Shown: in pieces, positions 36,858-62,575 of the stretch
Layout of the letters: each line of letters begins with the position of its first letter
Numbering within the stretch: position 1 is the stretch's first letter
Assembly: GCA_965219415.1 (NCBI GenBank)
Contig: OZ244742.1
Coordinates: 64,001 to 128,000 of the forward strand
DNA: 64,000 nt
Reading direction: 5' to 3'
Origin: Candidatus Marinacidobacterales bacterium
GTDB taxonomy: Bacteria > Acidobacteriota > Vicinamibacteria > Marinacidobacterales > DATDRI01
Position numbers and translations under genes: made by a program
The notes under the pieces: model-generated
The model's input: only the letters and a program-made list of their open reading frames with translations
What the model was told of the DNA's origin: nothing
The model's database searches: none

Positions 36858-37630
36858 GCATCCGGGCCCTTGGGCCCCGAGGGAAGCGGTTCCTCGTGTG
36901 CCGGAGTCAAATTCGTGCGACGTAGGAAGGAGTAAACCTTTAGAGCGATCCCGCTCACCAAGTACGTGACCGACATGCTGAGCAGCATGACTTGAGGATG
37001 AGTCCCGATGGCCACGAAGAGAAGCGCTAGCAGAAGGATAACCAAATAAGGATGGCGCCCTTTGAGGTCGATGTCCTTGAAACTGTAGTACCGCAAGGTA
37101 CTCACCATGAGGAGTGCCAACCCCGCCACCAGGACGGTAATGGGGATCGCTTGTGCCAATGTCTCGAGGGGTCTTGGAAACATAAATACTATCGACGCCA
37201 TCACACCGGCGGCTGCCGGGATCGGCATGCCCGCGAAGAAGCGCTTGTCGTCCACTGTTCTCTGAATATTGAACCGTGCCAACCGCATCGCCCCACAGAT
37301 GAGGAACAAGAAACAAGCGAGCCATCCCACCCGTGGCCAAAGATTGAGAGCCCAAACATAAGCCAGAACCCCCGGAGCCACTCCAAAGGAAACGACATCG
37401 GCGAGGGAGTCGAACTCTTTTCCGAACTCGCTTGTGGCATTGGCGAGACGCGCCACGCGACCATCTAAAGTGTCCAACACGATCGCCCAACCGATCAGCA
37501 TCGCCGCGAGCTCGAGGTCTCCCTTCATGCTGCTCACGATCGAGAAGAACCCACAAAAGACATTGCCTACCGTGAGTAGGCTCGGTAGGAAGTAGATCCC
37601 TCGACGTGGTTTCGACTTAGAAGCGCTCAT
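36854..37630 (-). CDS. pssA: CDP-diacylglycerol--serine O-phosphatidyltransferase
   Basis: LDTLDGRVAR...FGKEFDSLAD.VSFGVAP, RLARFN, F.GMPIPAAA. Confidence 0.93.
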   Translation of the reverse strand: MSASKSKPRRGIYFLPSLLTVGNVFCGFFSIVSSMKGDLELAAMLIGWAIVLDTLDGRVARLANATSEFGKEFDSLADVVSFGVAPGVLAYVWALNLWPRVGWLACFLFLICGAMRLARFNIQRTVDDKRFFAGMPIPAAAGVMASIVFMFPRPLETLAQAIPITVLVAGLALLMVSTLRYYSFKDIDLKGRHPYLVILLLALLFVAIGTHPQVMLLSMSVTYLVSGIALKVYSFLRRTNLTPAHEEPLPSGPKGPDA

Positions 37631-38250
37631 GGTCTCTCCGCCATTATGGTTTCGCCTCCCTTGACGTGCTGCCCTTCCTCGAACCGGACTTTGGTTCCCG
37701 CCGGCATGAGCACGTCGACGCGCGAGCCGAATTGGATCAAGCCGAATCGTTCGCCTCTCTCTAGATGGTCGCCTTTCTTCTTCGAAAACACAATTCTGCG
37801 AGCCACCAGTCCTGCGATCTGCCGGACCACGATCTTGTAAGACCCCTCGACGGTGAGCTCCATCTCGTTTTGTTCGTTCTGGGATGACGCCTGCTCCCGG
37901 TAGGCGGGCAAGAACTGACCCCGCGTATAGCGCACGTTGGTGATGACGCCGGAAAGCGGCGATCGATTGATATGGACGTTGAAGATGGACAAAAAAATAC
38001 TGACCTGCACGCGGTTCCCACTGCTTTCTTTTTCCGGCCCGACGTAAACGATTTTCCCGTCGGCGGGAGAGACCCACAAGCGAGGATCCTCGGGTGGGAT
38101 CCGGTGTGGATCACGGAAAAAGTACGTCACGAAGAGTGCTAGGACGAAAAACGGAATGGAAAGCGGGCGCGTGGGCGGGTAGAGCACCAACGCGAGGGCA
38201 ACTGCGAAAAGAATACCGATGTATGGAAGCCCTTCTTGTGCGATCCTCAT
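37627..38250 (-). CDS. psd: phosphatidylserine decarboxylase
   Basis: FFRDP, SPADG, FNVHINRSP, QIAGLVARRI, FGSRVD. Confidence 0.93.
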   Translation of the reverse strand: MRIAQEGLPYIGILFAVALALVLYPPTRPLSIPFFVLALFVTYFFRDPHRIPPEDPRLWVSPADGKIVYVGPEKESSGNRVQVSIFLSIFNVHINRSPLSGVITNVRYTRGQFLPAYREQASSQNEQNEMELTVEGSYKIVVRQIAGLVARRIVFSKKKGDHLERGERFGLIQFGSRVDVLMPAGTKVRFEEGQHVKGGETIMAERP

Positions 38251-48281: not shown

Positions 48282-48731
48282 GCGTTTTTCTCCTTACCAA
48301 AAGGTTAAGAAGTAGTGTCCCCCGTGGCTGATTTTGTGTCAACACCTGCCAGCCTTGGGTTTGCAGTACCGTCACCACGCTCTCCAGACGTTGATCAAAT
48401 CTGATCACGGCGGGTTCCTGATTCAACGGGGCCCGTTTCCCTCGAAACGTTCCGACAGATTTCAATAGATCTCTATTTACCGTTAGTAACCCTAACCGGG
48501 CGAATAGGCAGTGTCATCCGGGGTGGACGCCCCGTCCTAGATCCCCGGTGAGGGACGGCTCCAGGTAGGGTATGATCGTGCGCGAAACGACAGCCTAAGT
48601 CACTCCATCAAAATCGATTACGGGTTGAGCTCCTCGCGACCCGCTGGTGCTGTTGGGTGGCCTTGAATTTGCACTTTGAGATACCATGAGGGGTGCTCCG
48701 TTGGGGCGTCCACAGTGGAGAGGTACATCTT

Positions 48732-49706
48732 ATGAACGTCACAAAGAGCGTTGAGGGGAACGTGAGACTGGCTGGCTTAGCCATTCTGCTTACCGTGGTG
48801 GTGGGATGCTCGAGTCGTTCGTCGACGCCCTCCGTACCGTCGTTGCCGACGCCACCGTCTCCGCCTTCAGTACCGTTTCTCCCCTCTCCCCCTTCGACGA
48901 CGCCACCTTCAAACCCGTCACCGAGTGAGCCTTCGACGTCCCCCTCCCGGGAAGAATCCAGCGAAGGAAAGGGAGCGGAATCTGAATCGACGCCTTCCAG
49001 TGAAGATGGTGCGAAAGGTGAAGAGAGCGGGGACGGCTCGGCCTCGGGGACCGAAACGAGTGCCGAAGCCGGAGAGCAGCCTGGTGGCGGTCAGTCCAAA
49101 AGGGGTGAGGCGACCGGGTCCACACCGAGCGCCGCCGGGGCGGGCAAACTCGGTCAGGCCGGCTCGATGGGAAAGACTTCCGCAGGAACACCCCGGGCGG
49201 ATGCTAAGTCCGGCGGTAGTTCGAAAGGCAGCGGAAGTGGACCCAAGACGACCGAAGAAAAACGCGCCGGCCTCGACAAAGACTTGGACTCCTCGCTTAG
49301 CGAGTTCGACAAACTGCTCTTGAGCGAACAAGAGCTCTTGGAGCAGCAGCGAGAAGAGGCCGCAGCAGCGAGCGCTGACAGTGGTGACGGCGGGGACGGA
49401 GGAGAATCTGGCGACGGCGGTGCCGATGCTGAACGACGCGCCACCCAGGTCGCAGGTGGCACCGGTGGATCTCCAGATGCGCCCGCGGGAGAGCCGGCCG
49501 ACTCATCTCCAGGCGCTCCCGTTGGAGGGGCCGAGGGTGACTCGGACAACGGTCGCGTCCCCCCCGACGTAGGCGACGGGAGCGGCGACGACATCGTGGC
49601 CCGGCAGTTGCGCGAAGCGGCCACACAAGAGGACGATCCGAAACTTCGTGAGAAACTATGGGAAGAGTACCGAGCCTATAAGCGAGGCACCAAGAAAGGG
49701 AGCTAA
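48732..49706 (+). CDS. low-complexity putative lipoprotein
   Basis: Lipobox-like VVGC; Pro/Ser/Gly-rich linker; helical segments LDSSLSEFDKLL and DDIVARQLREAA...LWEEYRAYK. Confidence 0.7.
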   Translation: MNVTKSVEGNVRLAGLAILLTVVVGCSSRSSTPSVPSLPTPPSPPSVPFLPSPPSTTPPSNPSPSEPSTSPSREESSEGKGAESESTPSSEDGAKGEESGDGSASGTETSAEAGEQPGGGQSKRGEATGSTPSAAGAGKLGQAGSMGKTSAGTPRADAKSGGSSKGSGSGPKTTEEKRAGLDKDLDSSLSEFDKLLLSEQELLEQQREEAAAASADSGDGGDGGESGDGGADAERRATQVAGGTGGSPDAPAGEPADSSPGAPVGGAEGDSDNGRVPPDVGDGSGDDIVARQLREAATQEDDPKLREKLWEEYRAYKRGTKKGS

Positions 49707-49709
49707 AGG

Positions 49710-50957
49710 ATGCCGAGCCAACGTTTCCTACCCCGCATGCTGATGGCGCCTGCTTTTATTGTCGTTCTTGCCGCACTGGGGTTCCTGACCGCCTCGCCCG
49801 CGCAGGCTGGAAAGAAAGATCCGGTTGTGCTCATCCAAGCGCGAACCGAGATTCCCGAGGAAGAGCTTCTCGATGTCGGCATCCGGGTGTTCGATCCCGG
49901 TCTGCCGGAAGACGATGAGGCCCTCTTTGCCCTGGAAGAAAAAGGTGTCTTTCCGGAGATTCGGGAATCCGAAGCACGATACATCCCCTTCCAGCTGATG
50001 CAAACCCTCCAGTCCACGGGTTACTGGGGCGCGGTTCGTGTGGTCCCGGCTACAAACGCCGTCGATGTCACGGTCTTCGGGACCATCCTGAAATCGAACG
50101 GGAAGAGATTAGAAATCGCGATCTCGGTCGTAGATTCACGTGGCAAGCAATGGCTCAACGAGGAATACAAACGCGAAGCTAGCGTGGGCGCCTACATAAA
50201 AAAAAGAGGGGTTGTCGAGCACCCGGATCCTTATCAGTCTCTGTACAACGAAATCGCCAACGACCTTCTCGAGAAGCGGCGAAAGCTCGATCAAGAAGAC
50301 ATCCAAGAAGTGCGCCTGCTGTCGCAGCTCAAGTTCGCGATGGACCTAGCGCCCACGCCGTTCGAGGACTACCTGAAGATTGACAAGAAAGGGCGCTACT
50401 CGATCCGGAAGCTCCCAGCGGTCGACGATCCGATGATGGTGCGCGTCAACAACATTCGCGAACGGGATTTCATGTTCATCGACACGCTCAACGAGTTCTA
50501 CGCCAACTTCTACGCGACGATGGGCGAGGACTACGACGGTTGGCGGGCCGAAAGCTACAAAGACCAGGATGCGTTGGACAAGGCGAGAAAAGAGGCGTGG
50601 ATTAAGACGCTCGCCGGTGTCGCAGGGATTGTCGGAGGCGTAGTATCCAAAGACCCAGCGATTCGGGACGTCGGTCTGATCGGTGGGTCGGTTCTGATCA
50701 AGTCCGGAATGGACAGTTTCGGCGAAGCCAAGATGTACAGTGAGGATCTCAAACAGCTCGCCGCATCTCTGGACGCTGGGATGGCACCGCTCCTCATCGA
50801 TATGGAAGGCGAGGTCACACGACTCACCGGCTCCGTCGAAACTAAATACACGACCTGGCGTAATCTGCTTCGTAAAATCTTTGCTACCGAAACCGGACTC
50901 CCCATAGATCCCAACTCCGAGATACCGCTTGCCGAGCCGGGGCCATCCAATCCCTGA
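49710..50957 (+). CDS. exported hypothetical protein
   Basis: Signal peptide ending AQA; 415-aa ORF tightly packed in the operon; Gly-rich hydrophobic pair near the C-terminus. Confidence 0.8.
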   Translation: MPSQRFLPRMLMAPAFIVVLAALGFLTASPAQAGKKDPVVLIQARTEIPEEELLDVGIRVFDPGLPEDDEALFALEEKGVFPEIRESEARYIPFQLMQTLQSTGYWGAVRVVPATNAVDVTVFGTILKSNGKRLEIAISVVDSRGKQWLNEEYKREASVGAYIKKRGVVEHPDPYQSLYNEIANDLLEKRRKLDQEDIQEVRLLSQLKFAMDLAPTPFEDYLKIDKKGRYSIRKLPAVDDPMMVRVNNIRERDFMFIDTLNEFYANFYATMGEDYDGWRAESYKDQDALDKARKEAWIKTLAGVAGIVGGVVSKDPAIRDVGLIGGSVLIKSGMDSFGEAKMYSEDLKQLAASLDAGMAPLLIDMEGEVTRLTGSVETKYTTWRNLLRKIFATETGLPIDPNSEIPLAEPGPSNP

Positions 50958-50976
50958 GGCCCGCGACCGGAGCTCC

Positions 50977-53262
50977 ATGGCGCTGGCCCGTGGTCAATCA
51001 CTCGGCCGACGCTTTACTCTAATCCGTCCTCTCGGTCAGGGAGGAATGGGCGAAGTCTGGCTAGTCGAGGATCACGCGCTCGAAGAGCAAGTAGTCGTTA
51101 AAGTGCTCCCGCCAGATGATTCGCTAGGCTATTCCGAAGAACGCGTGGCGCTTCTCAAACGCGAGTGCCGGAACGCCCGTCGACTCGTTCACCCGAACAT
51201 CGTGCGCGTTTACGACACGCACGAAGAAGAAGGCGTCCGGTTCATCTCCATGGCTTACGTCGAGGGGAAAGACATCGGTCAGCTTCGAGGCCATCCATTA
51301 GAAGACATTTTGGGCGCGGCCCTGCCGATTGCGCACGCTCTCGATTACGCGCACCGGCAAGGCGTCGTGCACCGCGATCTCAAAGCCGCCAACGTGTTGT
51401 TGGATCGGCACGGCGAGCCGCAACTTCTCGACTTCGGCGTGGCGGGGTTGCTCGACTCGCCGTCCGACCCCTCGGAGATTACCGGTGGTGGATCGCCCTC
51501 CAGCATGAGCCCACAGCAACGTGCCGGCGACGAGCCGATGCGCGCCGACGACATTTATGCCTTCGGCACCCTCCTTTATGATCTCTTGAGCGATCACCGG
51601 AAGCTGCCGGAGAATCTGACCTCGCTCTTGGCATCTTTGCTCAGCGAGGACGCTGCGGACCGCCCCAACGATATGGGCGAGGTCAAAGCAACGCTTGCGT
51701 CGATCAGGAAGTCGATCGTCGGGACAGCCGCTCAAATCGTCGAACCGAAGGTGCCTCCGAAAGTGAAGGTCACCCCGCCGCCACGCGTCGAGACCATTGG
51801 ACCGGTAGCCACCTCTGCGGCTTCGCCGATTCAACCGAGAGTATCCTCGGGCGGCGGCGTCGGATGGCTGACCATCGCCACATTCGGGGTTCTCCTTCTC
51901 GCGACTATCGCGGTCTTTGTCTTCCTCCCCCGTTGGGTACCGGACCGGTCACCGCCCAGTCAAACTAAACAGGGTGAGACATCGGCGGAGCGTCAAGAGG
52001 CTCGGCCTCCGGTTGTTTCCGACTTGCGGCAGGAAGCGGAGCTCAAGACACTCGCCGAACAAGCGCGCGAGACCGCCGTCCGCTGGCGCGATGAGCTCCA
52101 ATTCAAGAGCGTCTCGATTTGGGGCGGCGATGAGTACCCCACCGCGATGGCAGCGCTCGAAACGGGTGACGAACAACTCCGCGCTCGGAAATATGAACGC
52201 GCTCTCGAGGGGTACCAAGAGGCGGCCGCGGGTTTCCAGTCCCTGTCCTCTCGAGCCGTCGAGGTTCTAAGTGAAGCCTTGGCGCAAGGACAGCGGGCAC
52301 TCGACCGAGGTGACTCGGGCGCCGCCAGGGTCGCGTTCGAACTCGCCGCGAAGGTCGAACCGAACAATCGGGCCGCACTCGACGGCCTCAGGCGAGCGGG
52401 CGTCTCCAATGAGGTCGTCTCTTTGCTCGCACAGGGTGCGGAGCACGAGAGGAATGGCGATCTGGCTCGAGCGGCCGACACTTACAAGAGAGCGCTCTCC
52501 TTAGATTCTCGGTCCGAAACGGCCCGGGACGCATTGGGACGCGTCGAGCGAACGATGGTGGAAAGTGCGTTTCGAACAGCCATGTCGGAGGGCTTCTCCG
52601 CCATCAACCGTCAAGATTACCGAGCCGCGCGCGAAGCCTTCCAAAAGGCGGGCAGCATCAAGTGGGGCGCCGCCCAGGTCGCAAAAGCCATCGGCGAGGC
52701 GGAAGAGGGCCTGCGGCTTCAAGTCATAGCCCTTCATCGCCAGAACGCTGCGGAGCTAGAGTCGAAAGAAGAGTGGCACAAGGCGGCCGAGCACTATGAG
52801 GCCGTGCTCGAGTTGGATGCCACGATTCGTTTCGCTCAAGAGGGCAAGAAAAAGACCGACCGGCGGGCGGCACTTTCGGATCAACTAGACTTTCATTTCG
52901 AGAATGCGGGCCGCCTGTCCGACATCAAGGTGCTTCAAACCGCGTCGGCCATTCTCGATACCGCCTCGCAAATCGATCCCGCCGGACCGCGACTCGAACG
53001 ACAACGAGCGGCGCTCGTCAAGATCATCGACGACGCTTCGACGGTCACTCGCGTTCAACTCCAATCGGACGATAAGACCGAAGTGGTGGTCTACAAAGTC
53101 GGCCGCCTCGGCAGGTTCGAGCAACATAGCCTCGAGCTTCGTCCGGGCACTTACACAGTAGTTGGAAGCCGGCCAGGCTATCGCGATGTTCGCTTAAAAC
53201 TGATCGTCGAAGCGGGAAAATCACCTGCCCCACTCGTCATCCGCTGTAAGGAAGAAATTTGA
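50977..53262 (+). CDS. membrane Ser/Thr protein kinase with extracytoplasmic TPR-like region
   Basis: GQGGMGEV, VVVK, HRDLKAAN, DFG; TM WLTIATFGVLLLATIAVFVFL; helical repeats; C-terminal LRPGTYTVVGSRPGY (PEGA-like). Confidence 0.88.
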   Translation: MALARGQSLGRRFTLIRPLGQGGMGEVWLVEDHALEEQVVVKVLPPDDSLGYSEERVALLKRECRNARRLVHPNIVRVYDTHEEEGVRFISMAYVEGKDIGQLRGHPLEDILGAALPIAHALDYAHRQGVVHRDLKAANVLLDRHGEPQLLDFGVAGLLDSPSDPSEITGGGSPSSMSPQQRAGDEPMRADDIYAFGTLLYDLLSDHRKLPENLTSLLASLLSEDAADRPNDMGEVKATLASIRKSIVGTAAQIVEPKVPPKVKVTPPPRVETIGPVATSAASPIQPRVSSGGGVGWLTIATFGVLLLATIAVFVFLPRWVPDRSPPSQTKQGETSAERQEARPPVVSDLRQEAELKTLAEQARETAVRWRDELQFKSVSIWGGDEYPTAMAALETGDEQLRARKYERALEGYQEAAAGFQSLSSRAVEVLSEALAQGQRALDRGDSGAARVAFELAAKVEPNNRAALDGLRRAGVSNEVVSLLAQGAEHERNGDLARAADTYKRALSLDSRSETARDALGRVERTMVESAFRTAMSEGFSAINRQDYRAAREAFQKAGSIKWGAAQVAKAIGEAEEGLRLQVIALHRQNAAELESKEEWHKAAEHYEAVLELDATIRFAQEGKKKTDRRAALSDQLDFHFENAGRLSDIKVLQTASAILDTASQIDPAGPRLERQRAALVKIIDDASTVTRVQLQSDDKTEVVVYKVGRLGRFEQHSLELRPGTYTVVGSRPGYRDVRLKLIVEAGKSPAPLVIRCKEEI

Positions 53263-55667
53263 AGGTACCGGTCTACCTCGTCGATGAAAGCGGCACCCGC
53301 CGCCTGGAGCCTGACGAGTTTCCACTGGAGCTTCCCGGGAGGACCGGCGCCCAAACCGCAGCCCATATCGGATCTTCCGAGGGAGAGCTCTTCGTACAGC
53401 CGGCGAGCTCCGAGTTGCCTATCCTTTGCAACGGCACTCCACTGAAGACATCTCGGTGGCTACGGGATGGGGATGTCGTCCGGATCGGCAAGACGCAGGT
53501 CGTCGTGGAGCTCGGAAGCGAGGCAATTCACCTCCGCGTCGAGAAGTGGAAGGCGGAACAGAAAACCGATCCTCCGGTGCTCCCGCCGACCCAACGCGCC
53601 AGTCCCGGGATGTCCGATGTCTCCGGGACAGCCGTGAAGCCGATCACGTTCGAGCCAATCCTCGTTCGCCCCACGCGCCGGGAGCGAAGTCCCATCCGCA
53701 CGCGCGAGATAGTGCTATGGGTCTCTCTTGCTCTCTTGGCCGCGGTGGCTTATTTCGTCTTCACCGCGCGTTCGGTGCTGGTCGAGACCGAGCCCGCGGG
53801 AGCGCAAATCGAATTCCAAGGGACCTATTTCAAATTCGAGGTCGGCGGCCGACATCTACTCCGACAAGGTGAACACACCGTAGCCATCGAAAAGGAGGGC
53901 TATCGACGAGTCGAGACCAAGGTGACGGTCACCGATGAACGCAACCAACGCTGTCTCTTCGTCCTCGAGAAACGTCCCGGCATCCTCGTGCTATCGACGG
54001 TGCCGTCGGAAGGCGCGGTGGTGACGATAGACGGCGAAGAAATCGGCGTCACCCCGGTTGCGGAAATAGAGCTTTCCGCTGGAGAACACGAAGTGTTGGT
54101 CCGCGCCGAAAACCATAGAAATTTCTTGACGAACGTGAACATCGAAGGCGCGGGTACTACCGAGACGCTAGAGGTTGTGCTCGAGCCGCGCTGGGCCGAC
54201 GTCTCGTTCACGTCCCAGCCTCCGGGCGCAACGATTGAGGTCAGCGGCTTGAGGATCGGCAGTACGCCGTTCACGGCGAAACTCATGGAAGGCGCGCATG
54301 CCTTCACCATGAAGCTGAAAGGGCATAAGCCTTACCGGAGTCGAGTGGCAGTGGTCGCGGGTGAGGCGCAGACGCTTCCCACGGCTCGGCTCACCGTCGC
54401 GGATGGCCTGCTAATCGTCGAGAGCGACCCAACCGGCGCCACCGTGACCGTGGACGGCGTCTACGGCGGAGAGACACCGTTGACGGTCGACGTGAAGCCG
54501 GGCGTGATCCATGAGATCGAAGTGTCCCGAGTGGGCTACGAAACCGAGACGCAGCAGACCCGAGTCGAATCCGGGAGCGAGGAAACCTTGAGCATCGAGC
54601 TCGCACCTCTGCTCGGAGAATTGGCAGTGGTCAGCGACCCGCCGGATGCGGTGTTGTATGTGAATGGCGAGCAACGTGGCTCGGCCAATCAAACACTGAG
54701 CCTCGTCGCCCTGCCTCAAAAGATCGAAGTACGCAAGGAAGGCTATGAAGCCTTCGCCACCACGCTCACACCACGACCAGGCTTCCCGCAAACGATCGAG
54801 GTGATCCTGATGACGCTCGAAGAAGCAAAAGCGGCCTCGACGCCCGCCGTGATCACCACATCTGAAGGGCACCAGCTGCGTCTCATCCAGCCGGCGCGTT
54901 TCCGTATGGGAGCATCGAGACGTGAACCCGGGAGGCGGGCCAACGAGACCATCCGCGAGGTCGAGCTAACGCGGCGCTACTATCTTGCGGTGCAAGAAGT
55001 GACCAACCAACAGTTTCGTAGATTCGATTCGAAGCACCGTTCCGGACGCGTGGCGGGGTTGAACTTAGAGATCGACCACCATCCGGTGGTCCGTGTCACC
55101 TGGGTCGCCGCGGTACGGTACTGCAATTGGTTGAGCCAAAAGGAATCCTTACCTCCGGCCTACGCGACGAGTGGTGGGAAGCTCGTCGCCATGGTGCCGC
55201 CCACCGCGGGCTATCGGTTGCCGACAGAAGCCGAGTGGGTTCGCGTCGCGCGTTACCCGGAGGGTGAAGCGGGACGAAAGTACCCATGGGGCGACTCGCT
55301 GCCGGTGGCAGCCAACTCCGGCAACTATGCCGACGCCTCCGCACGCGGCTTGGTGCCGAAGACACTTCCACAGTACAACGACTCGTACCCCGCCACCGCT
55401 CCCGCAGAAGGCTTTGCGCCGAATCCGCTGGGGATTTTCAACTTGGGGGGAAACGTTGCGGAGTGGATGCACGACTTCTACACGATCGCTCCGTCCGGGG
55501 CGGGAGTAGAAAGCAACCCGCTGGGCCCCAAAGACGGCGAGCTCTATGCGATCCGTGGATCGAGCTGGATGGACGGCAGTGTTACCGAATTGCGCCTCAG
55601 CTATCGCGACTACGGCAACAAGCCTCGGCCCGATTTGGGCTTTAGAATAGCCCGGTACGCCGAATGA
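53259..55667 (+). CDS. FHA-like / TM / PEGA repeats / FGE-sulfatase (SUMF1)-fold protein
   Basis: NG....LRDGDVVRIG; TM; S.P.GA.V..DG...G.TP repeats; FRMG, EVTN, HPVVRVTW, RLPTEAEW, YPWG, GNVAEW, GFRIAR. Confidence 0.9.
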   Translation: MKVPVYLVDESGTRRLEPDEFPLELPGRTGAQTAAHIGSSEGELFVQPASSELPILCNGTPLKTSRWLRDGDVVRIGKTQVVVELGSEAIHLRVEKWKAEQKTDPPVLPPTQRASPGMSDVSGTAVKPITFEPILVRPTRRERSPIRTREIVLWVSLALLAAVAYFVFTARSVLVETEPAGAQIEFQGTYFKFEVGGRHLLRQGEHTVAIEKEGYRRVETKVTVTDERNQRCLFVLEKRPGILVLSTVPSEGAVVTIDGEEIGVTPVAEIELSAGEHEVLVRAENHRNFLTNVNIEGAGTTETLEVVLEPRWADVSFTSQPPGATIEVSGLRIGSTPFTAKLMEGAHAFTMKLKGHKPYRSRVAVVAGEAQTLPTARLTVADGLLIVESDPTGATVTVDGVYGGETPLTVDVKPGVIHEIEVSRVGYETETQQTRVESGSEETLSIELAPLLGELAVVSDPPDAVLYVNGEQRGSANQTLSLVALPQKIEVRKEGYEAFATTLTPRPGFPQTIEVILMTLEEAKAASTPAVITTSEGHQLRLIQPARFRMGASRREPGRRANETIREVELTRRYYLAVQEVTNQQFRRFDSKHRSGRVAGLNLEIDHHPVVRVTWVAAVRYCNWLSQKESLPPAYATSGGKLVAMVPPTAGYRLPTEAEWVRVARYPEGEAGRKYPWGDSLPVAANSGNYADASARGLVPKTLPQYNDSYPATAPAEGFAPNPLGIFNLGGNVAEWMHDFYTIAPSGAGVESNPLGPKDGELYAIRGSSWMDGSVTELRLSYRDYGNKPRPDLGFRIARYAE

Positions 55668-55700
55668 GACGATGGCACGTTGCAAACGTAAAGGTGCTAG

Positions 55701-55801
55701 GCGCGCGAACGGAGCCTTCGGCCGCTGCGCAGGGCGTACGCCCGAAGCGGCAGGCCGAGTCGCGAAGAGCGACGAGGCATTCAACAGAAGAGTGAGCGCG
55801 C
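55701..55801. repeat. REP/MITE-like palindromic element related to 1356-1440
   Basis: Shares GGAGCC.TC.GCC...GCG.AGGGCG and GCCGAGTC.CGAAG with the insertion at 1356; GCGCGC at both ends; hairpins GGGCGTACGCCC and GTCGCgaagaGCGAC. Confidence 0.6.
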
Positions 55802-55827
55802 ATCAATACAGGAGAAGGGGAGCCACG

Positions 55828-56088
55828 ATGAGATACTTGCTCTACTCGATTCTGGCCACCGCGATCGCGGGTGGTGCGGTGATGGGCACCCAGGGGTCAC
55901 CCGCCTCCAGTCAGGGGTCGGAAGCCAAAGACGCAAAAGAACCGCCCGATGCCAAACAGGCAGCGGAACCCTCTTCACGAGAGAAGGAGTCTCAAACGGA
56001 AGCACAGCAAGAAAAAGAGCTGGAGCCCTTTACCCCTTCAGAGAAGGTCCCCGTCGATAGCGCTATCTCGTTCCCAGTCGATATCTGA
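55828..56088 (+). CDS. small exported protein
   Basis: AGGGGAG RBS; signal-like N-terminus; disordered linker; C-terminus FTPSEKVPVDSAISFPVDI. Confidence 0.7.
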   Translation: MRYLLYSILATAIAGGAVMGTQGSPASSQGSEAKDAKEPPDAKQAAEPSSREKESQTEAQQEKELEPFTPSEKVPVDSAISFPVDI

Positions 56089-56102
56089 AAGGTGCTTGGC
56101 GA

Positions 56103-56900
56103 ATGAAGAAAGCATACCCAGTGGAGTTCGTGTTCCAGACGGTGTCGCTCATCGTCGCGATCATCATCGTCCATGCCATCTACGTTCTCGTCGTTCGTCC
56201 ACGAGCGGATTACATCCTGGCTGAACAACAGGCACTCATGGAGGCCGACGAAAACTATGTTCAGGAACGATCGGTCTTCGTGATCGTCCGCGACTTCGAG
56301 CAAGAATCTTGCTTTGTTTTGATGCTATGGGCGATGGCGATCATGTCGTACAAGGCGATGGACGCCGCACGCGAGAAACACCTGCTCGAGCTGGATTTGG
56401 TTCCGGTCGCGGAGGGGACCAAGATCTTGCCCGAAGATGCACGCGAGTATGCACGTCAGATCCAATCATTGCCGGATTCCCAACAACGCCTGCTGCTCCC
56501 ACGCGCCTTGCTTTCGGCGCTCGCCCGGTTCGGCGCCACGCGCAACATTCAAGACGTCTCAACCACGGCCCACGCCGTGGCCGAGGCGGAGTCGGAACGC
56601 TTGGACTCCGAGCTCTCGATGGTCCGCTACATCGCGTGGGCCATTCCGTCGATCGGATTCATAGGCACGGTCCGCGGTATCGGCGACGCCCTCGGACAGG
56701 CGCACAAGGCGGTTGAAGGTGACATCGCGGGTGTCACTCAAAGCCTGGGCGTCGCTTTCAATTCCACCTTTATCGCGCTCTTGATCAGCATCGTGCTCAT
56801 GTTTCTCCTGCACCAGCTGCAGCTCCAGCAGGAACGGCTGGTGGCCGACGCCGACACCTACCTCGACCATCACCTCATCCAACATCTTCAGGTTTCTTAG
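56103..56900 (+). CDS. MotA/TolQ/ExbB proton channel family protein
   Basis: IAWAIPSIGFIGTVRGI and LGVAFNSTFIAL match the ExbB/TolQ channel helices. Confidence 0.9.
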   Translation: MKKAYPVEFVFQTVSLIVAIIIVHAIYVLVVRPRADYILAEQQALMEADENYVQERSVFVIVRDFEQESCFVLMLWAMAIMSYKAMDAAREKHLLELDLVPVAEGTKILPEDAREYARQIQSLPDSQQRLLLPRALLSALARFGATRNIQDVSTTAHAVAEAESERLDSELSMVRYIAWAIPSIGFIGTVRGIGDALGQAHKAVEGDIAGVTQSLGVAFNSTFIALLISIVLMFLLHQLQLQQERLVADADTYLDHHLIQHLQVS

Positions 56901-56905
56901 CCGAG

Positions 56906-58348
56906 ATGAGTGTCTTAGCTATAGAGCTCAACGACACCGGGATCGAAGCGGTGCGTGATTCCGATCCGGAAGCCGAGGTCATTGCTGCCAGTCCTGGTGT
57001 CGTCGTGTTGGATGGAGAAACCCTACTCACCGGACGCAAGGCGGCGAGCCGCGCCCGGTTGAAGCCCCGGTGGGCCTACGACCGATTTTGGGAAGAGCTG
57101 GATACCACACCGCTTCCTCGGCCGTTTCCGACAACCCTGCGTCGAGCCGATCTCGCTCACGCCCATCTAGAAGAAGTTTGGGAATCCACTCGAGAGCGAG
57201 CCGATGACGTAATGTTGGCAATTCCCGGATCCTTTTCACATGAACAGCTGGGGCTCGTCTTAGGAATCGCCCGCGCGTGCGGCATGCCGGTCGCGGGGAT
57301 GATCGATTCTTCGGTCGCTTCGTCGACACTCGTCGGTCAAGAGTCCAGCTTGGCACCGGTAGCCGTTCACCTCGATCTGCATCTGCATCGAACCGTGGCG
57401 ACTAGAGTCGAGCGCAATCATGAAGTGAAGCGGGCACGGATCGAGGTAAACGACGGTGTCGGCCTAATGGAGCTGCTCGATGCTTGGGTGAGACTCATCG
57501 CTCAGGTTTTTGTCCGCACCACTCGCTTCGACCCTCTCCATGGAGGCAAGAGCGAGCAAGCTCTCTACCTTCGTCTGCCGGTGTGGCTCGACGAGCTTCG
57601 ACAGAAAGACGAAGCCACTCTCACCATGAAGGGCGCGGGGAAGAATCACTCCATCGAGATCACGCGCGAGCAGATCATTGCCTGCGCCCAACCCTTCTAC
57701 GAAGTCTTCGCACAGCTGGCGAAGGCGTTGGAACCCGCCGGCCATTCGGCAACGCTGCTACTGCCGAAACGAATGACTGAGCTTCCCGGGCTCGAGGGCT
57801 TCCTGAGACTCGCGAACCCCGACCTGGTGGCTCTTCCAGGCGCAGCCGGCGCCAAGGGTGCCCTGAAGCTGGTAGGACATTTCCGTTCCGACAGAACTGG
57901 GGAGGAGCTACCTTTCGTCACCCAAATTGCGCTGAGCAGTGCATCTCCAGGCGGCCCAGAGTCCGAGGGCGGGACAGCGGCCCCTCCCGTCGAGGCTCCA
58001 GACGAAGAATCCAAAGTGCCAACCCACGTTCTATTTGAGGGACTCGCGCACCCCATCACGTCGGACCCTTTGGTCATCGGGTTAGCCGTGCCGGACGGAA
58101 GTCACGGCATCGACTTGGCCGAGCGAGGCGGGTCTTCCGCCGGTATTTCACGTTCCCACTGCAGTATCTATCGTGTCGAGGAACGAGTCTTGCTGGAGGA
58201 TCACAGCAGCTACGGCTCCTTTCTCAACGACAAACGGATCGAAACGAAGGCGATTCTCGCAGCGAGAGATCGGGTGAGAATCGGCACTCCCGGTGTCGAG
58301 CTGCACCTGATCGCCGTGGTGGATTCCGATGACGCGCCGCAGGATTAA
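56906..58348 (+). CDS. degenerate Hsp70/actin-like fold protein with C-terminal FHA domain
   Basis: DnaK-like order of motifs (LAIELND; SPGVV; LAIPGSF..EQ; GMPVAGMID; HLDL); FHA GISRSHC...LEDHSSYGSFLN. Confidence 0.7.
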   Translation: MSVLAIELNDTGIEAVRDSDPEAEVIAASPGVVVLDGETLLTGRKAASRARLKPRWAYDRFWEELDTTPLPRPFPTTLRRADLAHAHLEEVWESTRERADDVMLAIPGSFSHEQLGLVLGIARACGMPVAGMIDSSVASSTLVGQESSLAPVAVHLDLHLHRTVATRVERNHEVKRARIEVNDGVGLMELLDAWVRLIAQVFVRTTRFDPLHGGKSEQALYLRLPVWLDELRQKDEATLTMKGAGKNHSIEITREQIIACAQPFYEVFAQLAKALEPAGHSATLLLPKRMTELPGLEGFLRLANPDLVALPGAAGAKGALKLVGHFRSDRTGEELPFVTQIALSSASPGGPESEGGTAAPPVEAPDEESKVPTHVLFEGLAHPITSDPLVIGLAVPDGSHGIDLAERGGSSAGISRSHCSIYRVEERVLLEDHSSYGSFLNDKRIETKAILAARDRVRIGTPGVELHLIAVVDSDDAPQD

Positions 58349-59420
58349 CGTACTGAGTCAGTCCTTCTTGGACGCCATGACCTGTGGCTTCGGTGCGGTG
58401 GTGCTGTTTTTCATGATCGTCAATGCCAGCTTCGGCAGGATCTCCGGGCGCATGACCGGGGAGCTCCAGGGCGAGGTCGACCGATTGGAAGAAGAAGTCC
58501 TCGAGGGCTACCAGAACCTCGTCGAGGTCAAGAACTCGCTTCGGGTGATCGAGGAGGAAACCGTCGTCACCGCCGGACTCTCTCGCCGCCTCATCGAAAC
58601 GCTCGAGGAGATCCGGGTCGAGCTTGCCACCTACCAAGACTCAACCGTCGCACAACGAGAGCACGTCAACCGTCTGAAAGCGGATTTGAAGTCTCTCGAG
58701 GAAGACGTCAAGCGACTGTCGGCGGCGGCTCCCAGCGAAGAGACTCCCGGCGATAAAATCCGGACGTTCGTCGGGGACGGAGATCGGCAATACCTCACTG
58801 GTCTCAAGGTGGGAGGCAGGCGGATTCTCTTCTTGGTGGATAGCTCCGCGAGCATGCTCGCCTCGACGATCGTCAACGTACTGCGACGCCGGAATCTGCC
58901 GGACCATGTCAAGATCCGCGCCGACAAGTGGCAACAAACGTTGGCCACCGCCGACTGGTTGACCACGCAGATTCCCCGCGAATCGAGCTTTCAGATCTAC
59001 ACTTTCAACACGCGTGTGAGCTCGGTGATCCCGGGCACGGACGGTGATTGGTTGGACGGCGGCGACCGAAAGGTACTCGACGACGCGGTGCAGCGTCTTC
59101 GCGGCGTGGTGCCGCAAGGCGGAACAAATCTGCATCAAGCACTTCAATCGATCCGGAACCTGCGGCCGGCGCCCGACAACATCATGTTGCTGCTGGACGG
59201 CCTCCCGACTCAGGGTCCAAAACCGTCCCGGCGGGGCACGATATCCGGTAAGGACCGCGTAAAGCTTTTCAACCAAGCGGTGAAAGAGATCCGATCGAAA
59301 GTACCGATGAACATCATCCTCTTCCCCATGGAGGGCGATCCGATGGCTGCTAGCGCCTACTGGAAGCTCGCTCTCGCAACCGGGGGCTCGTTCATGAGTC
59401 CTTCCCGGAACTGGCCGTAG
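58329..59420 (+). CDS. ExbD/TolR-like TM anchor, coiled coil and vWA domain protein
   Basis: SFLDAMTCGFGAVVLFFMI; MIDAS DSSAS, GGTN, LDGLP. Confidence 0.85.
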   Translation: MTRRRINVLSQSFLDAMTCGFGAVVLFFMIVNASFGRISGRMTGELQGEVDRLEEEVLEGYQNLVEVKNSLRVIEEETVVTAGLSRRLIETLEEIRVELATYQDSTVAQREHVNRLKADLKSLEEDVKRLSAAAPSEETPGDKIRTFVGDGDRQYLTGLKVGGRRILFLVDSSASMLASTIVNVLRRRNLPDHVKIRADKWQQTLATADWLTTQIPRESSFQIYTFNTRVSSVIPGTDGDWLDGGDRKVLDDAVQRLRGVVPQGGTNLHQALQSIRNLRPAPDNIMLLLDGLPTQGPKPSRRGTISGKDRVKLFNQAVKEIRSKVPMNIILFPMEGDPMAASAYWKLALATGGSFMSPSRNWP

Positions 59421-59422
59421 AG

Positions 59423-60436
59423 ATGAAGAAAAGAGCGAAGCGAGAAAGCGCCCTGACAGGGTTCAGCCTGTCGTTTCTGGATTGTATTTGCTGTGGATTC
59501 GGCGCCATCATCCTGCTGTTGGTATTAACGAAGATCGGTGAGCCACGAGCGCTCGAGGCGCTTCGGATCGATCTCGAAGGTCTGGTCGCTCGCCTTCAAG
59601 AAGAGCTCTACGAGATCCGTGGCGAGACGAACGTTCTGAATCGCGAGCTCGTCAGCAAGGAGGAGCAGATCTCCAAAGAACGGGTTCGGATCGCTCGCTT
59701 GCGAGGGGACTTCTCCAAGATTCGAGGGGAGTACGCGACGAGCAAAGAACTCTCGGAGATCAACGACATCGTCGAAGGTCGCCTGCTCGCCGCCCGGCAG
59801 GAGCTGAGCGAGGAGATGAAACGACTCCTCGGCCTCGCCCATCGACGCGACACGAAGGACGCCACGGTGGGAGGGATCCCTGTCGACAGCGAGTACGTCA
59901 TCTTCATCATCGATACATCGGGCAGCATGCACAACTACGCCTGGTCGATGGTCAATCGGAAGATGAAAGAGACGCTCGACATCTATCCCAAGGTGAAGGG
60001 TCTGCAGGTCATGAACGACATGGGCCAGCACATGTTCAGAAACTACGCCGGTAAATGGATTCCAGACACTCCGGGGAGGCGTCGCGTGATCCTCGACCGG
60101 CTCCGGACATGGTCTCCCTTTAGCAACAGCAGCCCGGTGGAAGGAATTACCCGTGCTATCAAGCGCTACGCCACCCCCGACAAGAAGATCAGCCTCTACG
60201 TCTTCGGTGACGAGTTCACCGGACGCTCCATCGACGATGTCGTCAGAACCGTCGATCGGATCAACAAAGAAGATTCGCAAGGAAATCGCTTGGTTCGAAT
60301 CCACGGCATCGGCTTCCCCGTGATGTTCTCTCAATCGGGATTTCCGGAGAACACCGGTGTGCGGTTCGCGACCTTGATGCGGGAGCTCTGTCGCCGCAAC
60401 GGAGGCGCTTTCGTCGGACTGAGCTGGCGCCGCTGA
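59423..60436 (+). CDS. second ExbD/TolR-like TM anchor, coiled coil and vWA domain protein
   Basis: SFLDCICCGFGAIILLLVL; MIDAS DTSGS, VFGDEF. Confidence 0.85.
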   Translation: MKKRAKRESALTGFSLSFLDCICCGFGAIILLLVLTKIGEPRALEALRIDLEGLVARLQEELYEIRGETNVLNRELVSKEEQISKERVRIARLRGDFSKIRGEYATSKELSEINDIVEGRLLAARQELSEEMKRLLGLAHRRDTKDATVGGIPVDSEYVIFIIDTSGSMHNYAWSMVNRKMKETLDIYPKVKGLQVMNDMGQHMFRNYAGKWIPDTPGRRRVILDRLRTWSPFSNSSPVEGITRAIKRYATPDKKISLYVFGDEFTGRSIDDVVRTVDRINKEDSQGNRLVRIHGIGFPVMFSQSGFPENTGVRFATLMRELCRRNGGAFVGLSWRR

Positions 60437-60463: not shown

Positions 60464-62575
60464 ATGCGACTTCTGATAATCGCCGTGCTAGTCTTGCTCT
60501 TGGTGCAAGCGAACGACAAATCCACACCGCCCAAGGCCAAGGTAGTTCCCCACCAGCTCGAAAAGCACGGGGACATCAGAACCGACAACTACTACTGGCT
60601 GAAGGAACGCGAAGATCCAGAAGTCATCGCCTACTTGACCGCCGAGAACGCCTATCTCGACGGCGTCATGAAGCACACCGAAGGGTTGCAGGCTGCGCTA
60701 TTCGAAGAGATCAAAGGGCGGATCAAGAAGGACGACGCGTCGGCCCCCTTCCCGTACGATGGCTACTACTACTACCACCGCTATCAAGGAGACGCGGAAT
60801 ACGCCATTTACAGCCGCAAGGAAGGCTCGCTGGACGCGCCAGAACAGATCTTGGTCGACGGCAACGAGCTCGCTGAGGGACACGACTTCTTCTCGCTCGG
60901 CACCCTGTCAGTGAGCTCGGGACGGGACATTCTCGCCTTTAGCATCGATACCGTGGGGCGGCGGTTTTATACACTGCGCTTCAAGCAACTCACCAACGGC
61001 GAGATGTACGACGACGTCCTCGCGGACGTCACCGGCAACGTGGCCTGGGCCAACGACAACAAGACAATCTTCTATACCAAGCAGGACCCCGAGACACTGA
61101 GAGCTTATCGAATCTATCGGCACGTCCTTGGCACCGACCCAGCCAAGGACGTCTTGGTGTACGAAGAGCCCGACGAGGAATTCAGCTGCTTTATCTCGAA
61201 GAGCAAGTCGCGGAAGTACCTCTTGATCGGCACCTCCCAGACACTCAGCACGGAGTATCGTTACCTAGATGCCGCGAACCCCATCGGCGAGTTCAAGGTC
61301 ATCCTGCCGAGAGAACCGAAACACGAGTATTCCGTCGAGCACCTGGCAGACAAGTTCTACATCCGAACCAACTGGCAAGCACCTAATTTCCGGCTCATGG
61401 AAACACCTATTGCCAACACCGAGAAAGAAAGTTGGCGCGAAGTCATTCCCCACCGCAGCGACATATTCTTGCGGGACTACGATCTCTTCCGGGACTTCCT
61501 CGTCGTGACCGACCGAGAGGACGGACTCAATCGAATGCGCATCATTCCTTGGGCCAGCTCCGGGGGCGGTAGTGACGAGCACTATTTGGATTTCGGAGAG
61601 CCGGCCTACTTCGCCTACACCGCCACAAACCGAGAGCTCGAGACACCGATCCTGCGCTACGGCTATTCGTCGATGACCACGCCTTGGTCGACGTACGAGT
61701 ACGACATGGTGACGAAGGAGAAGACCTTGCTCAAGCAGGATGAAGTTGTTGGAGACTTCGATCCCGCCGACTATCGCACCGAACGTCTCCACGCGGTGGC
61801 GAGAGACGGCCAAAAGGTACCCATCTCCATCGTATTCCCCAAGGGGATGAAGAAAGACGGGAGTGCGCCGCTACTTCTCTACGCCTACGGCTCCTATGGC
61901 TTGTCCATGGACGCGACCTTTAGCTCGGCTCGGTTGAGCCTTCTAGAGCGCGGCTTCGGCTACGCCATCGCCCACATTCGCGGCGGCCAGGAGCTCGGCC
62001 GTCGTTGGTACGAAGACGGCAAGCTTCTCGAGAAGAGAAACACGTTCACCGACTTCATCGACTGTGGCGAGTACTTGGTCGAGGAGGGTTACACGAGTAA
62101 GGACCGGCTCTTCGCCATGGGCGGAAGCGCTGGAGGCCTATTGATGGGCGCGGTCGTGAACATGGCACCGGATCTTTTCGAAGGCGTGGTCGCGGATGTG
62201 CCTTTCGTGGACGTGGTGACAACGATGCTCGACCCCGACATTCCGCTCACCACCGGCGAGTATGACGAGTGGGGCGACCCCAATGAGAAAGAGTACTACG
62301 ACTACTTGCTCTCCTACTCACCCTACGATCACGTGGAAGCCAAGAAATACCCGCACATGCTGGTTACGGCCGGGCTTCACGACTCCCAGGTGCAGTACTG
62401 GGAGCCGGCCAAGTGGGTGGCAAAGCTGCGAGCCCTGAAGGCGGATGACAACGTTCTAATATTGAAGACGAATATGGCCGCCGGTCACGGCGGCCCGTCG
62501 GGGCGATTCAAGCGCCACCAAGAAACCGCGCTCGCCTACGCGTTTCTGCTGGATCTGGTTGGGATCGGAGAGTAA
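60464..62575 (+). CDS. ptrB: oligopeptidase B (S9A)
   Basis: DNYYWL, YGSYG, HIRGG, GGSAGG, PFVDV, EYDEWG, HDSQV, AGHGG. Confidence 0.93.
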   Translation: MRLLIIAVLVLLLVQANDKSTPPKAKVVPHQLEKHGDIRTDNYYWLKEREDPEVIAYLTAENAYLDGVMKHTEGLQAALFEEIKGRIKKDDASAPFPYDGYYYYHRYQGDAEYAIYSRKEGSLDAPEQILVDGNELAEGHDFFSLGTLSVSSGRDILAFSIDTVGRRFYTLRFKQLTNGEMYDDVLADVTGNVAWANDNKTIFYTKQDPETLRAYRIYRHVLGTDPAKDVLVYEEPDEEFSCFISKSKSRKYLLIGTSQTLSTEYRYLDAANPIGEFKVILPREPKHEYSVEHLADKFYIRTNWQAPNFRLMETPIANTEKESWREVIPHRSDIFLRDYDLFRDFLVVTDREDGLNRMRIIPWASSGGGSDEHYLDFGEPAYFAYTATNRELETPILRYGYSSMTTPWSTYEYDMVTKEKTLLKQDEVVGDFDPADYRTERLHAVARDGQKVPISIVFPKGMKKDGSAPLLLYAYGSYGLSMDATFSSARLSLLERGFGYAIAHIRGGQELGRRWYEDGKLLEKRNTFTDFIDCGEYLVEEGYTSKDRLFAMGGSAGGLLMGAVVNMAPDLFEGVVADVPFVDVVTTMLDPDIPLTTGEYDEWGDPNEKEYYDYLLSYSPYDHVEAKKYPHMLVTAGLHDSQVQYWEPAKWVAKLRALKADDNVLILKTNMAAGHGGPSGRFKRHQETALAYAFLLDLVGIGE

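Follow-up and report, generated by a model that had tools for sequence, protein, structure and literature searches.

What does a bacterium do with a motor channel that has no ExbD partner and is encoded, instead, beside two von Willebrand factor A (vWA) proteins, a protein kinase and a set of exported proteins? This question is raised by a nine-gene operon (g1 to g9) from a Candidatus Marinacidobacterales bacterium of the Acidobacteriota, which lies in a 64,000-nucleotide stretch of DNA (positions 64,001 to 128,000 of contig OZ244742.1, assembly GCA_965219415.1; the window in what follows, with its own numbering). We think that the operon probably encodes a proton-driven, or more generally ion-driven, trans-envelope machine of the 5:2 motor kind, to which a phospho-switch would be added in this lineage.

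Flagella, Ton import, Tol-Pal division, gliding, type IX secretion and Zorya defence all draw on ion-driven 5:2 motors, and a field has opened each time such an output came to be understood. For the present system, a three-gene core, made of the channel and the vWA pair, was already predicted in silico in 2025, while the accessory set was found in no paper. Several phyla keep the system as one block, it is common among soil and sediment lineages, and its complete parts list includes short testable elements: the pore Asp residues, the metal-ion-dependent adhesion sites (MIDAS) and the FPVDI tail of g5.

An orphan channel and its vWA pair

Is g6 a true member of the motor family, and with which partner would it work? 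The protein matches the MotA_ExbB family (PF01618) at 7.1e-14, with 52.1 bits for a cut-off of 22.9, stays above this cut-off in a scan of the whole genome, and aligns with the hairpin formed by transmembrane (TM) helices TM2 and TM3 of TolQ. P182, T189 and T222 are invariant in 87/87 sequences, and the motif PSxGFxGTVRG is retained in all 11 loci of a distant subfamily of the operon, to which we return below. The source genome, 8.05 Mb in three contigs and 96% complete, holds three MotA_ExbB channels and three ExbD genes; since all three ExbD genes sit beside the other two channels, g6 is an orphan channel. The same picture is given by five further genomes, small or complete: no ExbD-family hit is found near the g6-like gene (5/5), and two to five ExbD genes adjoin other channels. 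The system thus comes in addition to Tol/Ton, not in their place, and the idea that it replaces them in small genomes was rejected.

The probable partners are two paralogues. In g8, an N-terminal helix with the motif SFLD..CGFGA and Asp15 is followed by a coiled coil and by a vWA domain (Pfam VWA_2, 3.2e-07) whose MIDAS is complete (D171, S173, S175, T266 and D290); D15 and the MIDAS positions are invariant in 95/95 sequences, except that T266 is found in 94 and a Ser in one. The g8 family comprises 327 clusters at 50% identity (E<=1e-30). The second paralogue, g9, has no Pfam match and is 29% identical to g8, with cross-hits between both; it carries a helix of the SFLD..CGFGA type with Asp20, a coiled coil and a vWA-like domain with DTSGS, and D20, D164, S166, S168 and D263 are invariant in 93/93 sequences. 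Both proteins keep DxSxS and the distal MIDAS Asp, and D15 of g8, D20 of g9 and the same motifs are retained in 11/11 loci of the distant subfamily. No ExbD (PF02472) match and no OmpA/MotB-type match was obtained for either protein in Pfam and NCBIfam.

How would these parts work together? We infer a stoichiometry in which a g6 pentamer encloses one copy each of g8 and g9, with the pore filled by the Asp-bearing helices at their N-termini in place of ExbD, TolR or MotB. Ion flow would then turn or pull the pair, an axle made of a periplasmic coiled coil of ~110 residues that ends in two metal-binding vWA heads. That the work is coupled to ions is argued by the invariance of the pore Asp and Thr. 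A structural model of the pair, g8(1-165) with g9(1-160), scored 0.15 for a mark of 0.32, which speaks neither for nor against binding.

With TolQR-TolA and ExbBD-TonB this system shares the channel family, the logic of Asp and Thr in the pore, and an inner-membrane ion flow that would be coupled to the outer envelope. It differs from them in having no ExbD/TolR domain and no side arm of the TonB/TolA type: the axle holds the output domain and would itself transmit the membrane energy across the periplasm. Nor do the TM helices of g3 and g4 carry a His of the SHLS type, a motif described in PMC12204202. The preliminary description of this DNA, made from its letters alone, had spoken of a distinct trans-envelope machine, and a MotA/TolQ/ExbB channel with two ExbD-like-anchored vWA proteins replacing ExbD/TolR/MotB agrees with this.

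A core of this kind has a precedent. The passages on vWA proteins in PMC12204202 ('Origin and Evolution of Bacterial Periplasmic Force Transducers', Mol Biol Evol 2025) describe TM-tethered 'transpore-helix' vWA proteins in heterologous pairs, tightly linked to tolQ-like genes and without tolR/exbD, in Proteobacteria and Verrucomicrobia, and give their function as not known. These proteins have a TolR-like helix with a conserved Asp that is coordinated by a ring of Thr, and the core was modelled as 5:2 with AlphaFold 3. In the features that could be compared the present system is alike: g6 without tolR/exbD in the cluster, the heterologous g8/g9 pair, the helix Asp and the channel Thr. The words kinase, sulfatase and Acidobacteri do not occur in the main text of that paper; for this reason the six further genes (g1-g5 and g7), the phospho-layer and the acidobacterial clade lie beyond what its main text describes. 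A literature search for the nine-gene set, or for these six genes, found no paper, and MotA and ExbB are not mentioned in PMC7159879, which concerns vWA conflict systems. Products are named 'hypothetical protein' in the family-cluster records examined; among ten g8-family clusters, the only names were a Gammaproteobacteria metagenome-assembled genome (MAG) and a Puniceicoccaceae isolate, with no Idiomarina name. The earlier statement that no characterised system has this composition is therefore true as regards experiments, whereas the motor core had been described in silico in the vWA passages of PMC12204202; as far as these three genes go, the cluster comes close to an already described system.

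The nine genes (Table 1) are all present and open at the positions first assigned to them. In the stretch 48693-60436 they form nine co-directional open reading frames (ORFs) separated by gaps of 2-14 nt (g1/g2, 3 nt; g5/g6, 14 nt; g6/g7, 5 nt; g8/g9, 2 nt) or overlapping by 4-29 nt (g2/g3, 29 nt if g3 starts at its TTG; g3/g4, 4 nt; g7/g8, 20 nt). The absence of lesions holds as well, because every gene aligns with its orthologues from end to end. In the case of g5, orthologue alignments begin at Met53, so that the true start is probably at 55828 rather than at 55672. The list of encoded parts is borne out by Pfam, fold prediction, orthologue profiles and TM helices: g3, g4, g8 and g9 have a single hydrophobic helix each, which fits the topologies given here. 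Scans of the DNA returned two promoter-like sites for 3.4 expected and 20 terminator-like sites for 12.8 expected, none of the latter at the ends of the operon.

Table 1. Genes of the operon, with positions in the window
Gene	Position	Strand	Product and remarks
g1	48732..49706	+	Lipoprotein; ORF open from GTG 48693, likely start 48732
g2	49710..50957	+	Exported protein of 415 aa; lipoprotein in many orthologues
g3	50929..53262	+	Hanks-type Ser/Thr kinase, TM, TPR; start at TTG 50929 or ATG 50977
g4	53259..55667	+	FHA-like, TM, five PEGA, FGE-sulfatase fold
g5	55828..56088	+	Small exported/anchored peptide; ORF open from 55672
g6	56103..56900	+	TolQ/ExbB/MotA-family channel, 265 aa, presumed pentameric stator subunit
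g7	56906..58348	+	Cytoplasmic Hsp70-NBD-like (ASKHA) domain, linker, FHA (NBD, nucleotide-binding domain)
g8	58329..59420	+	Asp-bearing pore-type helix, coiled coil, vWA
g9	59423..60436	+	Paralogue of g8: Asp-bearing helix, coiled coil, vWA-like domain

Candidate periplasmic partners and output

If the two vWA heads reach into the periplasm, what would they hold? They would grip partners encoded in cis, and the first candidate is the FGE-like head of g4. In this protein Pfam finds PEGA in five stretches (3.3e-55) and an FGE-sulfatase domain (1.6e-37); an FHA-like segment (1-95) is followed by a TM helix (151-169), by the PEGA stalk and by the C-terminal FGE-sulfatase fold. The N-terminal segment matches PF00498 in 13/28 orthologues at E<=1 (best 1.3e-5) and an FHA family of the YscD type in 10/28. 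When g4 is aligned with human SUMF1 chains, the 'MC' of the enzyme falls on 'MD' and g4 has no later Cys; judged by these residues, the catalytic Cys is lost and g4 is not an active FGE. Its FGE domain matches PorK chains at 1.3e-10, and against the GldK/PorK model TIGR03525 g4 scores 94.3 bits for a cut-off of 350, over the C-terminal half of the model only.

Further candidate partners are g1 and g2 on the outer-membrane side, the acidic FPVDI-COOH tail of g5 and the periplasmic part of g3. The lipoprotein g1 has a signal peptide, a lipobox (VVGC), a long disordered linker rich in Pro, Ser, Glu and Gly, and a conserved C-terminal helix with the motif DDDIVARQLREAA..E.DP.LREKLW.EYR.YK, which aligns between sequences from Acidobacteriota, Gammaproteobacteria, Desulfobacterota, Myxococcota and the distant subfamily; neither Pfam nor NCBIfam gave a match for g1. 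For g2, which is present in all complete loci and whose consensus (39 orthologues) has a 'GC' near the N-terminus, AlphaFold2 (AF2) predicts an N-terminal alpha/beta domain and a long helical hairpin (241-352) with a Gly-rich, hydrophobic tip (pLDDT 86.3, predicted template modelling score 0.82). Foldseek relates this model weakly (E 1e-4 to 1e-2, template modelling scores 0.2-0.5) to TolB-N, PelC, DUF330, LptE, CsgG and LPHT-ring lipoproteins. The likeness to outer-membrane lipoprotein folds, seen in a predicted structure, is a lead, not a finding; a Protein Atlas search with g2 gave clusters that had no name or an automatic one and that shared no Pfam family.

The small g5 consists of a hydrophobic N-terminus, an acidic linker of low complexity and an invariant C-terminal end, ...SFPVDI-COOH, with the consensus ..SE.V.AD..VSFPVDI-stop. 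An ORF that ends in [FYL]P.[DN]I stands between g4 and g6 in 83/85 loci, and in 9/11 loci of the distant subfamily a g5-type ORF is found as well; as background, 107 of the 56,841 ORFs of at least 10 aa in all loci have such an end, g5-type ORFs included. Going by this conserved end, g5 is more than a filler.

Two well-studied machines invite comparison, and the preliminary description had named proteins of both, the Myxococcus Agl proteins and the Bacteroidota FGE-fold proteins; these parallels proved apt. According to PMC11761067, an AglR5 pentamer holds an AglQ/AglS heterodimer, and GltG, which has the plan FHA, TM helix and periplasmic domain found in g4, is predicted to dock on AglR. Could our operon encode a surface apparatus for adhesion or gliding like Agl-Glt, with the vWA heads as adhesins or linked to them? 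The heterodimeric axle in a TolQ-like pentamer and the partner with FHA and TM helix are common to both (PMC11761067), and Agl-Glt includes a vWA adhesin (PMC9946355). Against this, AglQ and AglS are TolR-like and have no vWA domain, and CglB, the vWA protein there, is an outer-membrane lipoprotein, whereas the vWA domains of g8 and g9 are anchored to the inner membrane and not at the surface. No counterpart of the Glt barrels, MglA or GltI is conserved beside the operon among ~91 loci; moreover, gammaproteobacteria with genomes of 1.7-2.0 Mb retain the core, and a gliding apparatus would be an odd thing for them to carry. We hold this explanation to be quite improbable.

The second comparison is with PorLMKN (GldLMKN) of type IX secretion, which would make of the operon an export or secretion machine with a motor, a shaft that spans the periplasm and a ring of FGE fold. 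Here, too, there would be a 5:2 motor with such a shaft, and there is an FGE-fold protein without the FGE active site; among named bacterial families the FGE domain of g4 is nearest to PorK/GldK, and g2 weakly resembles the ring-forming outer-membrane lipoproteins PelC, CsgG and the LPHT ring. The score against PorK, however, is far under the cut-off, and the g2 matches have low template modelling scores; g4 is anchored to the inner membrane through its PEGA stalk and does not belong to a lipoprotein ring; and neither a translocon nor a cargo or signal-bearing gene is conserved in the vicinity. In addition, g6 is a true MotA_ExbB member, while PorL is not known to be detected by this family. 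A type IX-like exporter is thus, in our judgement, very unlikely.

What, then, would the ion-driven machine do at the other end of its axle? Candidate outputs are tethering or remodelling of the outer membrane, adhesion, export and envelope maintenance, and we lean to the last because small streamlined genomes keep the core. In that case the system would be a new player in outer-membrane biology; an output in adhesion or export would make it a new type of adhesion or export machine.

A phospho-layer that is often lost

On the cytoplasmic side, the kinase g3 matches Pkinase at 2.9e-29 (102.7 bits, cut-off 31.7) and TPR_2 at 8e-08, and it shows HRDLKAAN for the motif HRDLKxxN as well as DFG; after the kinase come a TM helix (314-332), a periplasmic TPR/helical region and a C-terminal beta domain, and the periplasmic C-terminal part is conserved everywhere. 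The N-domain of g7 (1-335; AF2 pLDDT 90.9) is related by Foldseek to Hsp70 NBDs with E values of 1e-18 to 1e-15, a template modelling score on the target of ~0.7 and ~13% identity. There is no Hsp70 substrate-binding domain, and an FHA domain (Pfam, 4.5e-10) stands in its place; in the consensus of 44 orthologues, this domain keeps the residues G.R, SRxH and N, the motif with which FHA domains usually read phosphothreonine.

In the proposed mechanism a target would be phosphorylated by the kinase g3, whose periplasmic TPR region would be the sensor. Two readers would recognise the mark, namely the FHA domain in g7 and its FHA-like counterpart in g4, and g7 would work on the motor's cytoplasmic face through its Hsp70-NBD-like body. 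More speculatively, and with a probability that we set well below that of the machine as such, one can imagine a third route for membrane energy across the periplasm, beside TonB and TolA: the heterodimeric axle would be the transducer, with MIDAS heads that cycle on acidic ligands (the FPVDI-COOH of g5, the DDDIVARQLREAA helix of g1) and on the FGE-fold head, and with an Hsp70-NBD-like FHA protein, controlled by a eukaryote-type kinase, as its clutch on the cytoplasmic side. Its task would be one of envelope maintenance, not recognised until now and common to soil and marine Acidobacteriota, Gammaproteobacteria, Desulfobacterota and the bacteria of the Planctomycetes-Verrucomicrobia-Chlamydiae (PVC) group.

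Is the phospho-layer a necessary part of the machine? The distant subfamily, 11 weaker-match loci, indicates that it is not. These loci keep g1, g2, the periplasmic part of g3, g4 from the TM helix onward, g6, g8 and g9, and in all 11 the kinase part, the FHA-like part of g4 and g7 were unmatched; the joint absence of the kinase, the FHA-like part of g4 and the FHA of g7 speaks for the reading proposed here. At three loci (L139-L141) a gap of ~900 nt lies at the place of g7, and in L140 the gap codes for a protein related to the g7 N-domain but lacking FHA (hhalign 93%, E 2.7e-7). In the closer subfamily, by counts that depend on tblastn coverage thresholds, all four cytoplasmic modules are present in 44 of 69 complete loci; the kinase is absent in 21, seven of which are also without the g7 FHA, and present in 48, two of which are without it. 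The phospho-switch is an optional, often lost layer, and the core, of seven to eight genes, is separable from it. A machine switched by kinase-FHA signalling, as first proposed, is plausible in this lineage, but the switch cannot be essential to the system as a whole.

These losses also bear on another explanation, namely that the unit is mainly a sensor: its periplasmic parts would detect damage or a ligand and signal through kinase and FHA to targets elsewhere, with the channel as a gate or a check of energy. The closest known case is the TagQ/TagR-PpkA-Fha1 pathway of the Pseudomonas H1 type VI secretion system, in which, according to PMC13713981, the FGE-superfamily TagR was modelled on the periplasmic domain of the kinase PpkA, with the lipoprotein TagQ, and TagR loop mutants lose function. 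The domain set is the same as that given there (a lipoprotein, an FGE-superfamily periplasmic protein, a Hanks kinase with a TM helix and an FHA reader), and the g7 FHA has the residues usual for reading phosphothreonine. A vWA domain belongs to this vocabulary as well, being the periplasmic domain of PpkA.

The differences, in turn, are several. In our operon the vWA domains sit on the motor subunits; the FGE fold of g4 is fused to an FHA-like TM protein, unlike TagR; g7 scores 18 bits against the TagH model, for a cut-off of 120; and no type VI gene stands beside the operon. Against a sensor speak the loci, close and distant, that lack the kinase, with or without the FHA parts, in which the channel, the vWA pair, g2, the g4 stalk and g5 persist; the invariant pore residues, which argue for ion-coupled work; and the lack of an output gene (a transcription factor or a secretion system) conserved beside the operon. 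A mainly sensory unit is accordingly unlikely, though of the explanations that compete with the ion-driven machine it is the one we would dismiss last.

The proposal of an ion-driven machine with a phospho-switch has its own difficulties. By sequence, g8 and g9 are not members of the ExbD, TolR or MotB families, and their putative role as a plug depends on one helix and one Asp; the family is known from prediction and sequence alone, and its likeness to the vWA proteins of PMC12204202, a paper whose seed is from Idiomarina, is one of described features. The fold matches of g2 are weak. An ATPase activity of g7 appears doubtful because its phosphate-2 loop, LHLDLxLHR in the consensus of the 44 orthologues, is not glycine-rich, although D10 of the N-domain is invariant; and the FHA-like domain of g4 is probably a degenerate reader since the SRxH signature is missing from its consensus. 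As for the coupling of kinase and FHA, 14 kinase-less loci retain the g7 FHA, and the tree (79 scored rows) requires at least 15 changes of state for the kinase; among 12 independent pairs contrasting in the kinase, the g7 FHA followed it in ~4, opposed it in ~0.1 and stayed the same in ~8 (median p 0.125). The coupling is suggestive only.

Distribution, neighbours and the source genome

How far does the unit extend beyond the genome in which it was found? Of 41 related genomes, 27 matched g6 used as a query. Strong matches, with 70-94% identity, occur in two families (5/7 and 16/17 genomes), and in a third family, f3, g6 matches of only ~30% identity are found in 5/16 genomes. Eleven loci from ten genomes of the window's order hold g1-g4, g6, g8 and g9 in the order of the window; g7 is missing from L020, and the kinase part from L019 and L020. 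One genome of this set (G016) has two copies, of which one (L021) is full and the other (L020) is that without the kinase domain and g7.

Four loci outside the window's order, from other acidobacterial classes, have the same gene order, and in an even sample of Acidobacteriota g8 was matched (E<=1e-10) in 5/301 genomes. A scan with the g8 alignment, one genome per species, matched at least 594 stretches, of which at least 582 were confirmed; phylum labels for MAGs of other phyla were taken from the best 80 of these at least 594 stretches. Among those 80, the acidobacterial carriers are Vicinamibacteria, Holophagae, Thermoanaerobaculia and Sulfomarinibacter, the gammaproteobacterial ones are Woeseiaceae, Steroidobacteraceae, Lysobacterales, Chromatiales and Pseudomonadales, and the others are Desulfobacterales, Desulfatiglandales, Myxococcales and Kiritimatiellia. 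In a class sample around a Woeseiaceae carrier, the g8 profile matched 36/401 genomes, a tally that includes one unpublished genome, G384, used for this count only.

Wherever loci are long enough, g1, g2, g3, g4, g6, g7, g8 and g9 keep their order and spacing. The recurrence of the same order across phyla places the cluster far beyond chance, and the synteny across genomes that a neighbourhood search was expected to reveal is indeed strong. Flanking genes are not conserved, no family being common to more than 12 of the ~91 loci, so that the operon is a self-contained unit. A quick maximum-likelihood tree (LG+G4) of concatenated g6+g8+g9, with 92 rows, excludes four duplicates and the three loci of f3 and has no established root. 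All acidobacterial rows lie within one starred clade of it, and the phylum labels cluster strongly, with 5 changes for a mean of 25.8 after shuffling.

This distribution bears on a defence function as well, which the preliminary description had listed among the possible outputs. Would a Zorya-type system, with a MotA-like motor that senses perturbation of the envelope by phages, have such a spread? Clustered labels and the high share of carriers in two families are unlike the patchy spread of defence islands. Zorya consists of a ZorA with a long tail, ZorB, and ZorC/ZorD or ZorE as effectors. PADLOC gives the 265-aa g6 a weak ZorA2 match (E 3.9e-4, 17.5 bits), and the likeness of the kinase to defence kinases is merely generic (PD-T4-6 models); the same search found no ZorB, ZorC or ZorD and no other system, Pfam finds no nuclease or other effector in the operon, and the neighbours are housekeeping genes. 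Of all the functions considered, anti-phage defence, itself very improbable, comes last.

The neighbours also bear on the earlier impression of a window in which most accessory genes are decayed. This view found no support: MutS, SppA, Psd, a CDP-alcohol phosphatidyltransferase and an Asd-type gene are intact among ten spot-checked neighbours. In the segment 27120-48281, overlapping ORFs on the same strand (35847-38250, for example) are separate intact genes (Asd-type, CDP-alcohol phosphatidyltransferase, Psd) with over-long upstream frames, as is typical of GC-rich DNA, and not broken ones. As stated at first, no TonB, TolA or flagellar gene adjoins the operon in this window, by domain scans and the neighbour spot check. 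Downstream, a gene for oligopeptidase B (60464-62575; NF007511, 9.6e-234, below the equivalog cut-off) starts 28 nt past g9. It adjoins the operon only within the same genus and is outside the conserved unit; co-transcription with the operon is possible.

A few observations from other loci and from the same genome complete the picture. In L106, a Myxococcales MAG, the operon is split, with g6-g9 on one strand and g4-g3-g2-g1 inverted ~1 kb downstream. Two lineage-specific groups of neighbours recur, each assigned by Pfam on one member: an OmpA-family protein with a glycine zipper directly after g9 in seven loci (including L091:12184-12960, labelled Woeseiaceae), and a protein with TPR and TonB_C that adjoins the operon in 12 loci (including L063:2113-3639), the four listed examples being all gammaproteobacterial.

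The f3 genes were rejected as members of the same system, given that L023 lacks the vWA pair and differs in its set of genes. In L023:2509-12778 (genome G013), and also in L022 and L024, relatives from the window's order without the nine-gene operon, a different orphan MotA_ExbB gene, ~30% identical to g6, stands with a Ser/Thr kinase, four FHA proteins (two of them fused to trypsin-like peptidases) and a PP2C phosphatase, and with neither a vWA pair nor an ExbD gene. This cluster may represent another type of MotA-like system with a phospho link.

As for the other channels of the source genome, a canonical one of the ExbB/TolQ type, with an adjoining ExbD/TolR gene, lies at G000:C1:59667-60476, ~4 kb ahead of the first base of the window, and contig 3 carries the second, together with two ExbD genes.

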